NCBI GenBank assembly: GCA_951406725.2
Contig: OX597824.1
Span: 69,564,001-69,628,000, forward strand
DNA length: 64,000 bases
Direction: 5' to 3'
DNA from: Octopus vulgaris
Taxonomy: Eukaryota
Position numbers and translations under genes: made by a program. This document shows positions 3,400-34,933 of the stretch, piece after piece (position 1 is the stretch's first letter; the number at the start of each line of letters is the position of its first letter). Under the pieces are notes generated by a model, which was not told the origin of the DNA, ran no database searches, and saw only the letters and a program-made list of their open reading frames with translations.

Positions 3400-3455
3400 A
3401 GCCGGATCGCGATTTCGGATTTTTATGTAGACCATCTTAATCCTCATCAGCGACT
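3400..3455 (-). ncRNA. Type I hammerhead ribozyme, canonical core
   Basis: Minus strand: AGUCG-CUGAUGA-GGAUU-(17 nt)-AAUCC-GAAA-UCGCGA-UC^CGGCU. Stem I 5 bp, stem II 5 bp, palindromic stem III, AUC cleavage triplet. Confidence 0.85.
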
Positions 3456-4017
3456 CTTAACGCCTAGAGTTAAACTCAACTACCTCTGTCAGTCTTATAA
3501 GAAAAACCGTTGAAAACGTGTGCTGATTTCCAAAATTGCAAAAGTGTAAGCAAGAAATTAAAAAGAGTGGCTAATTAGCAATTAGAACCTGAAAACAAAA
3601 TGAACAGAGGTCACAAAAGTGGTGCTGGTCAGTACTCTTTAGGTTCCAATTACTAATAAGCCACCCTTTTCAATTTGATATATATATATATATAGATATA
3701 TATACGTGGGGGCGTGCGTGTGTGTGTAGGATGAGTGTATGTATGTACATATATAAATATATGTATGTATGTGTGTGTGTGTATATATATATATATATAT
3801 AATACAAAATAAGAAAATGGAGAAACACATCTTAATCAATGATCAACTACCAGATAATACCCAACCACATAATTTATTAAACCACTACATATGAACATTA
3901 AGGTCAAACATAATAATATAGAACAAAACAATGTACATGAAAGAGTAATATGATACAATAAGTACAGTATGTATAAGTGAATATAAATAAATAAATACAA
4001 ATATAAATATAAACTAC

Positions 4018-4144
4018 ATCTTATAGCTGTTTCGGCCATGCAGATATGGGTGCCTCATTATGCTCATATTAGCCATGTGTGGTAGGTCAATATGTAATTA
4101 TAAATTAGACACTTACAAAAATATCCCAAGGCCTCTTCAGAGAT
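4018..4144 (-). ncRNA. Type I hammerhead ribozyme with long stem II insert (left arm, stem III point change)
   Basis: AUCU-CUGAAGA-GGCC-(long insert)-GGCC-GAAA-CAGCUA-UA^AGAU. Confidence 0.65.
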
Positions 4145-4509
4145 TATGAAGAACAAACTAAATTAAATATGAAAATCAGAGGAGATACACCCATACTATA
4201 GTAGGTACATACCCATAATATATAATATATAATATAATATACATATACATATGAGTGCATATATCCATACTCCTATAGAACATATGTATGTATATTGCTG
4301 TATATTATTATTATTATATATATGTATATATATATATATATATATATATATATATATATATATATATATATATATATATAGGAGTATGGAAATATGCACT
4401 CATATGTATGTGTATATCATATTATATATTATATATTATGGGTATGTACCCACTATTGTATGAGTGTACCTCCTCTGATTTTCGTATTTAATTTAGTTTG
4501 TTCTTCATA

Positions 4510-4632
4510 ATCTCTGAAGAGGCCTTGCGATATTTTTGTGTCTCATTTATAACTACATATTGACCTATCACAAATGGCTAATATGAGCATAAGGAGGCAC
4601 CCATATCTGCATGGCCGAAACAGCTGTAAGAT
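4510..4632 (+). ncRNA. Type I hammerhead ribozyme with 88-nt stem II insert
   Basis: AUCU-CUGAAGA-GGCC-(88 nt)-GGCC-GAAA-CAGCUG-UA^AGAU. All core nucleotides present, GUA triplet. Confidence 0.8.
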
Positions 4633-5028
4633 GTAGTTTATATTTATATTTGTATTTATTTATATTCACTTATACATACTGTACTTATTGTATCATATTA
4701 CTCTTTCATGTACATTGTTTTGTTCTATATTATTATGTTTGACCTTAATGATCATATGTAGTGGTTTAATAAATTATGTGATTGGGTATTATCTGGTAGT
4801 TGATCATTGATTAAGATGTGTTTCTCCATTTACTTATTTTGTATTATTAATTTGTGGTAAAACATTTTACCTTTGCCCATATAATACAGTAAATGAATTA
4901 ACTGCATTGCAATTCTTAACATTTATGTATTAACTTTGTTGGGTGCTTCACTAGCAGTATATTGGATATATGTTATCCCATGGAGAGTTGCATTTACAAC
5001 CCCCATCTCAATTTGTATATATATATAT

Positions 5029-5233
5029 ATTTCTTTACTACCCACAAGGGGCTAAACACAGAGGAGACAAACAAGGATAGACAAAGGGATTAAGTCGATT
5101 ACATCGACCCCAGTGCGTAACTGGTACTTAATTTATCGACCCCGAAAGGATGAAAGGCAAAGTCAACCTCGGCGGAATTTGAACTCAGAACGTAACGGCA
5201 GACGAAATACGGCTCGCATTTCGCCCGGCGTGC
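5029..5233 (-). mobile_element. SINE family A
   Basis: Reverse complement of the family A consensus (CCCACAAGGGGCTAAACACAGAGG..GAATTTGAACTCAGAACG). Confidence 0.9.
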
Positions 5234-5538
5234 ACGTATATATATATGTATATATGTATGAATGTAAGTATAGACATTTGCAACTAAAGAAATGCAAAGA
5301 GACATATTCAGATGGGGAAAATGCATAGAAAAAACATTAGTAAATTAGAAATAAAGGGTGAGAGAGATAGATAGAAATAGAGTGAAAAAGTGAAATAGAG
5401 AGAGAGAGAGACTGATAACTACATGCATACATAGATTAGCGGATACGTAATATAGAGGGAGATAGCATAATAGAAAGTGTGATATATATATATATACTTA
5501 GAAACACACACACATACATACATACATATATATATATA

Positions 5539-32005: not shown

Positions 32006-33111
32006 ATGGTAATTATTAAGCGAAAAATGTGATTCACTTTTTCCACTTCAAATAAAAAATGAAAAAGAAATAAGGGAACATGAAGATGAAGATGAAGAAG
32101 ATAGCAATAATAATTAAAAATGATAATAACAATAATGATAAAAATAACGGGATAACAGTGAGTGACCGGTTCCGATGACCTCAAAATCAACTTAACATTT
32201 TAGAGAACAAAAAGAAAAGAAAAAGGAAGAGAAATGGAAAAGAACAAAGATAAAAAGGGAATAGCTACAACAGCAAAAGAAAAAAAGAAATGAAAAATGT
32301 AGTAACAACAACATCTTAGCCACTGTAATGAATAATAATGTTAATGATCGAATTTCGGTTTGCAATGATGTCGATCGAAGACGATAAATTAAGCAGAATT
32401 ACAGTGAGCCGTGCAGAGGTGGTGGCAGTGGTGGCGGTGGTGATGTAGGGTGGGAGTTAAACAAGAGGAAAAAAAGGAGGGTGTGTTTGGTCATAACTAA
32501 GAAGAGAATTAGCAAAGATGGCGACGAAGAAAATAAACCAAGGGTGCAGAACGTGAAAGTGAAAGTGAAAGAGTTTAGGGAGGAGGAGGAAGTTACATAA
32601 AGTGGGGGGTGATGTAGTAAACCGTGAATTTCAAGATATGTGATGGGGGAGATAAATTGGGGTATTTTTTTTTTATTTAAACCCTGATCTGTACTGATTG
32701 AGCAGATTTATGATCAAAGGCATTCCAACTATGACCATCCCATATTTTTTTTCTTTATTTTTCCTTTTTGTCTTTTGATTTTTTCAAGCAATTTTCGTCT
32801 AAGAATGCATCATCCAGTGTGTCCATATTTTACGATGGATAATGAACACTAGAAATAACAGTCAAAGCGACTTGGCTGGTATTTTTAGTAGAGTGACCCT
32901 GATAGACCAATCGTGAGCAAAACGCGGCCCGCGTGACTTTTTGAATGGCACGCCTAAAAAAAATTACCTTGAAGTTTTTTAATAGTGCGGTTTGCCTGGT
33001 GATGAACCATATCTCATGCGGCCCGCTCTTCAGGAAATATATATATATATATATTTCGTTTTAGGATTTGGTTTGGAAGATTCTTTATGTGAGTTCACGT
33101 GTTGAAGCATA

Positions 33112-33382
33112 TTCTGTTGTGTCTGGGGACAGTCATTTTCTTTTTATACCTTATTATAACACACACTTACCGGTAAAATTTCCATTTTTTTTTTCCTAAA
33201 ATTTTCGTTGGGTCTTGCAACCTTTTCAATAGTCTTGTTGAGAGTCAAGACTATTGAAAAGGTTGCAAGACGCAACGAAAGTTTTAGGAAAATAAAAATA
33301 AGAAATAAGTGGAAATTTTAACGGTGAGTTTGTTACATTATAAGGCACAAAAAGAAAATGACTGTCGCCAGACACAACAGAA
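33112..33382. repeat. Fold-back inverted repeat (33112-33237 / 33246-33382), 8-nt loop
   Basis: TCTTGCAACCTTTTCAATAGTCTTG / CAAGACTATTGAAAAGGTTGCAAGA. The arm and left flank resemble a dispersed repeat at about 43150-43245. Confidence 0.9.
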
Positions 33383-33528
33383 AATATATATATATATACC
33401 TACACATGTATACAGATGTACATGTAGATGGAAACTCACAAACACGCACAAACATACACACAGACATACGCACACACGCACACACACACACCCACGCACA
33501 TATATGTGTGTGTATGTGTGTGTATGTA

Positions 33529-34244
33529 TTAAATAAAATGAGACAACAAAGCTAAGGCTGTGTGGAATTTTCAGGACATTTATAAAGAGAAAGTTAGTTT
33601 TACAGCTGTTTCTGGGATATTAGGGATATCCTTTGATCAGAAACGATGTTAGATGGTTCTTCGGATGAGGTCCTTAATTTTGGTGAGTAGAAGTAAGAGG
33701 AGAGTGTTTTGTGAAGGAATAGGTATTTCCTTAAGAGAGATATCAAGGAATTGTTAATCCATTATATAAACGTTACCTGTAATAAGTGCCTGTATTAGCA
33801 AAGAAGCAAAAGTATGAGAGTTTTTGGTATCCAGAAGACCCAAGGTGGCAGGTAAGGCGATGTAAGTGCTATGAAAGGACCGTAGATAAACTCTCGGTTC
33901 GAAAATAATACGAGTGAGGAGTCTAATGGTGTTCTCGTATGAGCATATATATGTTAAATAAAATGAGACAACAAAACCAAGGCTGTCTGAGCATTTTTGC
34001 TCAAATTATCGACGTGGTGCCGAACGTTGTGTTGAAGAAGCACGCTGTGTCTCAGGTCGGGTCTTTTGGAATTACCCATCGAACGAAGTTGACAGGCAGC
34101 GATATCATAAGAGCATTCCATCTGCTGGGCGAATTCCCGCATGAATTGGGGCAGATCCTCGTGGATGAGTTCGTTCAATCCATCTTTATCAAACTTATTA
34201 CAGTTTAAATAAAATGAGACAACAAAGCCAAGGCTGTGTGGAAT
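33529..34244 (-). mobile_element. Internally deleted Penelope-like element with three copies of its terminal motif
   Basis: TTAAATAAAATGAGACAACAAA..AAGGCTGT at 33529, 33954 and 34205. Minus strand 33651-33772 reads MD*QFLDISLKEIPIPSQNTLLLLLLTKIKDLIRRTI (PLE ORF N-terminus-like), directly followed by an HHR. Confidence 0.7.
33597..33644 (-). ncRNA. Type I hammerhead motif with a core G8C change (probably inactive)
   Basis: GUUU-CUGAUCA-AA-GGAUAU-CCCUA-AUAUCC-CA-GAAA-CAGCUG-UA^AAAC. Confidence 0.6.
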
Positions 34245-34449
34245 ATATATATATATATATATGTATAGATGCCGAAATTGCGAAGATAATCTGGTACTTG
34301 ACTGAGGAAAGAAAACTTAGAATGACCCGTCCTTGTTTTCTTGGTATCGTCTGTCTGGATGTTTTGTTGTCCCATTTTGGTATCACCTAACTGTTCGGAT
34401 GTTTTGTGTTCTTTTTCCATTTTATATTTTATATATGTATATATATATA

Positions 34450-34660
34450 TGTGACCGCGTGTGTACGGTTGGCGAATTTTTTTCCTCCGTCTTCCCTTCT
34501 CTGGATCTTTCCTTTTCCTATGTTTCTGACGAAGAGCTCCGCTCGAAACGTTGAACCCTCCTTCTTCCCTTCCTTCCTGAGCGTCCAATAATACTATATT
34601 TGTTCCACGTCCTCGCGTTGTTGTGTTTTCTCTTTGTGTTTTCATGTTTGGATTAACTAT
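34450..34660 (+). mobile_element. Short dispersed HHR-bearing element (family of 9726-9920)
   Basis: Near identity with 9726-9920. Flanked by (TA)n. Confidence 0.75.
34522..34556 (+). ncRNA. Minimal type I hammerhead ribozyme
   Basis: GUUU-CUGACGA-A-GAGC-UCC-GCUC-GAAA-CG-UU^GAAC. ACGU palindrome in place of stem III, extra A after A9. Confidence 0.75.
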
Positions 34661-34677
34661 ATATATATATATACATA

Positions 34678-34933
34678 TATATTTATCAAAAGAAAAACAG
34701 GATGCAAAGGATTTAGTGGTACATATGTTTCTGGCTTTATTATACAGTTTATATCAATGCATTATTGATGTAATATGTATGTCAATAGCCATCTTCAGCC
34801 GCGCACAATTACCACACCAAGGTTATTGACATACATATTACTTCATTTATGCATTGATATAAACTGTCTAATAAAGCCAGAAACATATGTAAAGCTAAAT
34901 CCTTTGCATCCTGTTTTTCTTTTGATAAATATA
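34678..34933. repeat. Fold-back inverted repeat (34678-34790 / 34821-34933)
   Basis: ATTTATCAAAAGAAAAACAGGATGCAAAGGATTTAG / CTAAATCCTTTGCATCCTGTTTTTCTTTTGATAAAT. Confidence 0.9.
34716..34802 (-). ncRNA. Type I hammerhead ribozyme with 52-nt stem II insert
   Basis: GCGG-CUGAAGA-UGGC-(52 nt)-GCCA-GAAA-CAUAUG-UA^CCAC. One stem I mismatch. Confidence 0.75.

Follow-up and report, generated by a model that had tools for sequence, protein, structure and literature searches.

Seven repeat families with minimal hammerhead motifs of Penelope-like element type in one window of the Octopus vulgaris genome

Minimal type I hammerhead ribozymes occur in the pseudo-long terminal repeats (pLTRs) of metazoan Penelope-like elements (PLEs) and in truncated PLE copies, and the published forms cleave weakly and as dimers only (Cervera and de la Pena 2014, PMC4209133; here and below, statements on cited papers refer to the portions of them that were covered). 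PLEs of the Hydra clade are described as carrying DKT and RWK or RWR motifs, a CxCX5C linker, a C-terminal GIY-YIG endonuclease with CxxC and CxH motifs, a hammerhead and (TA)n targeting (Craig et al. 2021, PMC8557442), and PLE tails mark two internal start sites of the reverse transcriptase (RT) (PMC11167929). We analyzed a 64,000-nt stretch of the Octopus vulgaris genome (contig OX597824.1, positions 69,564,001 to 69,628,000 of the forward strand; hereafter the window), in which an initial annotation had reported a cluster of type I hammerheads and read it as about six short, non-autonomous, PLE-derived families. In our reading, the cluster most probably consists of retrotransposed copies of seven families (A to G) piled up at (TA)n: truncated ends of coding PLEs (B and E), a homologous end (F) and short units copied in trans (A, C, D and G). 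The observation is confirmed and its interpretation partly supported. Hammerheads in PLE ends and retrozymes were already known and a Hydra element was already listed for an octopus, so the window adds families rather than a concept.

All eight full motifs were found upon inspection of their coordinates and strands (Table 1). In each, a CUGANGA-type core is followed by stem II, GAAA, a palindrome and UH, and stem I closes the motif; the stems are unlike one another from family to family. The two partial copies of the initial annotation were also there, one in a 3'-cut inverted copy of D and the other in a copy of G cut inside the core. Descriptor searches were compared with block-wise (local) dinucleotide shuffles. 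A strict descriptor, which required 4/4 pairs in each of stems I and II and a palindrome free of mismatches, gave three matches in the window, 3401-3454(-), 4510-4632(+) and 34522-34556(+), and 0 in 200 shuffles; a relaxed descriptor allowing one defect gave six (shuffle mean 0.01, maximum 1); and a wider descriptor, tolerating U3:A8, one core change, and an unpaired base or mismatch at 10.1, recovered all eight motifs plus two unconvincing matches (shuffle mean 0.22, maximum 2). The hammerhead families of Rfam gave no match at E≤10 in 3300-3670 and 33520-34830 (regions covering A, C, E and F), and were absent among 150 of the 453 rows of a whole-window scan, in which microsatellite matches dominate. 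The Rfam check proposed in the initial annotation thus did not recover the motifs, which is expected because they lack helix III. This missing match, and a window of 37% GC rich in microsatellites, could suggest chance matches in AT-rich repetitive DNA, an explanation to which we assign practically no probability: it is refuted by the shuffles, by reversed-pattern controls that gave 0 genome-wide matches where exact patterns gave 163 (G motif), 3,283 (C motif) and 15,487 (a C-like motif described below), by covariation and by the location of motifs in the pLTRs of intact PLEs.

Families were resolved by searches of the 2.80-Gb assembly containing the window, in which the 40 best matches were scored per family. 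First-look numbers, which are search candidates and not copy numbers, were 670 (A), 1764 (B), 1272 (C), 2932 (D), 2562 (E), 1134 (F) and 2876 (G), and the supposed six or so families became seven. By blastn among the seven natural units, no homology between families was found.

Compensatory pairs in stem I, the covariation that the initial annotation had suggested looking for, were present in G (20 G-C and 18 U-A out of 43), D (5 C-G and 5 U-A out of 13) and A (2 and 2 out of 9); these changes follow subfamilies and therefore represent few independent events. The core of G reads UUGAUAA in 97 of the 100 matches listed, with one more differing at position 7 alone and C3 absent among them, and the 3:8 pair is kept through a double change to U3:A8. 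This variant is known from Schistosoma PLEs (PMC4209133), for which reason we rejected it as a novelty, and a U3:A8 hammerhead has been reported as active (PMC3088659). U17 in family C was likewise set aside, being common in published minimal hammerheads. The CUGAUCA core at 33597, presented earlier as a variant, is private to the window copy (CUGAUGA in 8/9 other E motifs listed), and the core variant at family level is that of G. A CUGANGA core with a 3:8 pair, GAAA and UH was found in A, B, C, D, F and family-typical E; private defects of the window copies are marked in Table 1. The palindrome is present in all families, and upon dimer folding its helix was predicted to form between molecules (P=0.98) in those copies of B, D, E and F that were folded and have no private defects. 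Circular folding of the G monomer was far better than that of shuffles (z -6.8). By core and stems, the window motifs are genuine minimal type I hammerheads of PLE type from seven repeat families, with cleavage as a prediction.

Copies of family B have variable 5' ends and frequent inversions, and the two in the window form a single inverted insertion. Traced upstream, B passes through >2 kb of low-complexity 3' untranslated region (UTR) into RT and GIY-YIG coding sequence, and E also reaches RT/GIY-YIG endonuclease coding sequence. One E locus (L097) is a broken pLTR-ORF-pLTR element of ~3.9 kb (ORF, open reading frame), and junctions of ORF start and pLTR like that of the window E chimera were seen at two others (L084 and L085). 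F aligns with the pLTR of an intact Hydra-type family of 842-850 aa (72% over 469 nt, hammerhead nearly identical); tracing F itself upstream through ~2.2 kb of shared sequence did not lead to an ORF. By these comparisons, B and E are identified as 5'-truncated 3' ends (pLTRs) of coding Hydra-clade PLEs, and F is probably likewise an end of a coding PLE. Non-autonomous status, which the initial annotation had inferred for several families, is not supported for four of the eight full motifs (4018 and 4510 of B, 33597 of E, 34716 of F) and is likely for the non-coding units A, C, D and G.

A genome search for Hydra-type proteins gave 5,903 candidates, and many open frames of 778-1091 aa were present among the 150 scored. 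These proteins carry DKT, RWK or RWR, YRDD, YIG/YVG, CxxC and CxH. DKT in place of DKG was found in the B and E copies and in 14/20 selected frames; RWK in E and two further frames (L258, L259); RWR in B and two others (L262, L263); and neither matched in the F-related frame (L261). The CxCX5C linker is present in the 842-850, 980 and 1090-aa groups. A C-terminal GIY-YIG with CxCX5C, CxxC and CxH was seen in B and the F-related family, and broken E copies show CxC alone. Because Pfam gave no GIY-YIG match in Hydra-type proteins, that assignment rests on motifs. No name for the proteins came from sequence searches of Pfam and PDB (RVT_1 in 1/44 members), the B endonuclease region had no match in a database search, and listed database protein relatives include Argonauta at 34-38% identity. 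We place the B, E and F group in the Hydra clade, as judged from motifs rather than an RT tree.

The decayed ORF of the window had been proposed as a plausible relative of the mobilising partner. It is a PLE remnant, matching a profile of Hydra-type proteins at 27956-28252 (iE 2.5e-7), and is placed by this profile alone, with no database match and only a weak pairwise match (E 0.002). It has no DNA relative elsewhere in the genome and no tblastn match to B or E loci, and was therefore rejected as the partner; intact Hydra-type ORFs are situated elsewhere in the genome.

Families A, C, D and G are built differently. Their units (336, 219, ~540 and 365 nt, respectively) have a GC content of 0.33-0.42 and longest ATG frames of 37-70 aa, and no frame matched the Hydra proteins. 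At many loci that are not linked to one another, the sequence upstream of the hammerhead runs into the 3' end of its own unit. Natural tandems were found in C (2.8 units), G (two units), A and D; those of C and G contain two consecutive complete hammerheads, one of the cores is defective in an A tandem (L120), and a D tandem (L191) has one complete motif only. A pattern search found four C end-to-start junctions, two of them within one 2.8-unit array. When C copies were taken in coordinate order, 17/20 started at unit positions 107-123, just past the 3' end at 106, and copies are therefore just under one lap long. At 30 G loci, also in coordinate order, unit-end sequence lies directly upstream in 14 and an inverted piece in 18, and copies exceeding one unit are common in D and G. 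These four families are short, non-coding, head-to-tail units of the kind found in retrozymes that lack long terminal repeats (non-LTR retrozymes). They bear on the alternative that every family is a truncated end or a local tandem duplication of a coding PLE, with no non-autonomous amplification. That description is true for B and E and probably for F and the Neptune-type family below, and a rare coding parent could escape the top 40 scored matches; as an account of all seven families it is unlikely, given the passage into the unit's own 3' end at unlinked loci and the clustered starts of C. Copying of A, C, D and G in trans by a PLE RT is the likely course. At one locus (L266; G000:C7:166500-176499), a D 3' end is joined without (TA)n to truncated F-like sequence, twice and in inverted orientation, next to an 896-aa Hydra-type ORF, and a template switch between families is possible there.

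The 3' ends were compared across families. (TA)3 or longer adjoins 162/207 anchored, non-run-on 3' ends as against 9.2% of random 20-mers, in a count that used anchors chosen by hand and loci that were mostly best matches, and in which some ends classed as other are run-ons with mismatches. In A, B, D, F and G, the 3' ends fall at two discrete positions per family. Visual inspection placed several of them 10-20 nt downstream of a small hairpin with a U-rich run behind it, which may be a start signal for RT.

Outside the window, a motif like that of C (same stem II ends, extra A, CG palindrome) was searched with core positions 6 and 7 free. The canonical A6 occurs in 158 of its 15,487 exact matches; among the first 100 listed, 96 have U6, followed at position 7 by U (41), A (25), C (19) or G (11). 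The flanks of 20 such loci have a mean likeness of 68% upstream and 76% downstream. When 103 motifs of C and the U6 family were anchored by nothing but stem II, positions 3, 4, 5, 8 and 9 each held the conserved base in 94-102 copies; position 6 had A in 55 and U in 45, and position 7 was free. No other hammerhead-like motif found in the genome is as abundant as the U6 motif, in which U replaces the near-invariant A6 and stems, palindrome and other core positions are retained. The U6 motif lies within the pLTR of a Neptune-type PLE (18,415 candidates, many at identical score), whose pLTRs stand in tandem with a unit of ~4.5 kb. At nine loci with intact frames of 1024-1214 aa, all 16 motifs read CUGUUGA, and DKG, a CX2-5CxxC linker (CX4CxxC here) and a Cys/His motif in the C-terminal GIY-YIG were present in 9/9. 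This family is Neptune-type by its motifs, which do not tell Neptune from Nematis, and looks very young. In both C and the U6 family the core is preceded by a long pyrimidine tract; at that place one U6 subfamily has CUGUAG, which looks like a splice acceptor. A literature search by title and abstract, with Lunse et al. (which may describe core variants) outside its coverage, found no A6U or CUGUNGA hammerhead variant; a paper listing hammerhead together with A6U concerns twister ribozymes in the part covered. In a natural A6C hammerhead of phage Bcep176 (PMC3088659), the rate in Mg2+ is down by orders of magnitude and activity in Mn2+ is kept (PMC7151607).

The cluster could have been built as follows. 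The GIY-YIG endonuclease would nick AT-rich DNA, and RT would initiate at either of two fixed internal RNA sites downstream of the hammerhead and copy back through the intact hammerhead; where it stopped early, inverted or entered the previous unit, truncated, inverted or partly tandem copies would result. The hammerheads may cleave weakly as palindrome-joined dimers and thereby trim or circularise tandem transcripts, which could supply circular templates. Each new copy would leave or enlarge a (TA)n tract and draw the next insertion. Likely helpers would be Hydra-type proteins for B, E and F and the Neptune-type protein for C, the latter because the hammerhead of C resembles that of the Neptune pLTR.

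Several results weigh against this reading. For A, C and G, and for the window copies of D, E and F, the palindrome helix was not favoured upon dimer folding, and circular folding was no better than shuffles for C (z -0.45) and A (z -1.1). Hammerhead mutants left in vitro insertion by a PLE protein unaffected (PMC11167929), and 8/9 Xenopus retrozyme dimers failed to cleave; because the published minimal forms are also weak, cleavage of the A-G motifs is put forward as a prediction. No DNA similarity was found between A, C, D or G and the pLTRs of the 50 Hydra loci examined, matches there looking like separate insertions, and trans-mobilisation is therefore argued from architecture. Downstream of the hammerhead, the likeness of C to Neptune pLTRs is at or just above the shuffle maximum (3/5 above). 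The longest array seen is 2.8 units. Ends of family E adjoin (CA)n and not (TA)n (0/5), so that the (TA)n preference of the initial annotation holds for the bulk of the ends and fails for E.

Some of these points favour the main rival, in which short units amplify like short interspersed elements (SINEs) from read-through transcripts of single copies and the hammerhead is an inherited, non-cutting fold with no circle involved. Near-unit-length C monomers fit such copying as well as they fit a circle, the largest related family has U6, cleavage is dispensable in vitro, and C and A circles are not unusually stable. What speaks for a maintained ribozyme is the 3:8 pair retained by G via a double change and the covariation of stem I in three families (A, D and G), and D and G copies are often longer than one unit; we give this rival a substantial share of the probability, short of an even one. 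Should cleavage in Mg2+ be lost with U6, as it largely is with A6C, we suggest, tentatively, that the PLE hammerhead is kept as an RNA handle for dimerisation or RT and not as a nuclease, and that the 219-540-nt units would be passengers keeping the fold to capture Hydra and Neptune enzymes. C (A6) and the Neptune family (U6) form a matched natural pair for this question in one genome.

Under the preferred reading, of retrotransposed copies piled up at (TA)n, the features of the window are distributed as in Table 1.

Table 1. PLE-related copies in the window and their hammerhead motifs.
Feature	Coordinates	Strand	Details
Family A copy, non-coding 336-nt head-to-tail unit with short inverted 3'-end piece	3302..3668	-	Hammerhead 3400-3455, predicted cut after 3405 (AUC)
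Family B inverted copy, 3' UTR/pLTR of coding Hydra-type PLE	3799..4295	-	Hammerhead 4018-4144, palindrome mismatch (private defect); short 3' end then (TA)n
Family B direct copy, ~170-nt tail towards ORF start	4326..5015	+	Hammerhead 4510-4632, predicted cut after 4628 (GUA)
Family C copy (219-nt unit)	9718..9918	+	Minimal hammerhead 9797-9831: extra A after A9, CG palindrome, GUU, stem II mismatch (private defect)
Family D copy, slightly >1 unit of ~540 nt	18915..19490	-	Hammerhead 19184-19259 with U10.1.U11.1, predicted cut after 19189 (GUA); palindrome mismatch (private defect)
Family D inverted truncated piece	19490..19621	+	Partial motif 19564-19621, 3'-cut inverted copy of 19184 motif
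Family G copy cut inside core	27283..27544	+	Partial motif 27287-27315; family core UUGAUAA (U3:A8), 365-nt non-coding unit; predicted GUC site 27310
Decayed Hydra-type PLE ORF fragment (DKT region)	27918..28252	+	Many stops and frame changes
Family E chimera	33529..33990	-	pLTR end, ~330 nt of ORF start, junction, hammerhead 33597-33644 (private G8C), pLTR end
Family C copy, nearly one full unit between (TA)n tracts	34449..34658	+	Hammerhead 34522-34556, predicted GUU site 34552
Family F short 5'-truncated pLTR	34678..34820	-	Hammerhead 34716-34802, predicted cut after 34720 (GUA); stem I mismatch (private defect)
Family F inverted piece with 3' tail, ends in (TA)n	34819..34990	+	–

Other repeats lie among and beside these copies. 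At 34257-34425(+), a further repeat has a CUGANGA core, a short stem and GAA, with no clear GAAA-palindrome-UH seen; it has relatives in six other loci examined, and contig depth was high in one sequencing run. A repeat at 36205-36350(+) has a CUGANGA core with GAAA ~50 nt downstream, and some of its relatives resemble degenerate hammerheads. An imperfect palindrome of ~280 bp at 33040-33390, flanked by (TA)n tracts and with relatives at other loci, is probably similar to miniature inverted-repeat transposable elements. Between two E 3'-end pieces, 33997-34205 is a 209-nt, non-AT-rich sequence with no relative among the loci examined. Tandem 184-bp repeats at 8377-8745 and 11654-12122 resemble an octopus SINE, and frames at 25621-26390 are similar to an R2/CRE-type non-LTR element in its C-terminal endonuclease region.

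The octopus genome offers a test system for the role of PLE hammerheads. It combines intact Hydra- and Neptune-type ORFs with four candidate passenger units whose double 3' ends are mapped, and pairs a compensated U3:A8 core with an uncompensated U6 core in ~15,000 copies; standard CUGANGA or Rfam scans would overlook both variant families.

Against the minimal type I hammerheads of metazoan PLEs (PMC4209133), the motifs described here are alike in core, short stem I and palindromic helix III; family C also shares the unpaired base after A9 and the CG/UU ending, G the U3-A8 pair, and B, D and F the opposite-strand pairs 100-700 bp apart, and single motifs in truncated PLEs occur in both. They differ in the long loop II with internal helices of B, D and F and in A.A at 10.1/11.1 of E and F, and the U6 of the Neptune-related family is absent among the supplementary motifs covered of that paper. 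With the Hydra-clade PLEs (PMC8557442), the octopus elements share the protein motifs, linker, endonuclease, hammerhead and (TA)n adjacency given at the outset. They are longer than the <3 kb described there, a tendency and not a rule (E ~3.9 kb; 3' UTR of B >2 kb), and many of their families are young and keep intact frames. In the supplement, Hydra-1_Obim is shown with a hammerhead unlike those of A-G. The Neptune-type PLEs of the same paper are matched by the C-related family in DKG, CX4CxxC and Cys/His in the C-terminal GIY-YIG; its hammerhead differs in having a CUGUNGA (U6) core in nearly all copies, those beside intact frames included. The Bcep176 A6C hammerhead (PMC3088659; PMC7151607) shares a natural change at core position 6; here the base is U, in ~15,000 copies of a eukaryotic retroelement known from sequence alone.

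Units A, C, D and G resemble non-LTR retrozymes (PMC7229834; bioRxiv 10.64898/2026.07.22.740005) in being non-coding and low in GC, in their head-to-tail arrangement, in a length of a few hundred bases and in the single type I hammerhead per unit, and share with them a proposed PLE origin. In the octopus units the hammerheads are minimal rather than canonical, most copies are dispersed, about one unit long, and show inversions and double 3' ends of PLE type, D (~540 nt) exceeds the 150-450 bp range, and circular RNA is a prediction. Their two-start-site signature supports, in an invertebrate, the proposed PLE origin of retrozymes. Judged against these papers rather than Repbase or Dfam, A-G add new members to kinds already known, namely the minimal hammerheads of PLEs, the ends of Hydra-clade elements and units resembling retrozymes.

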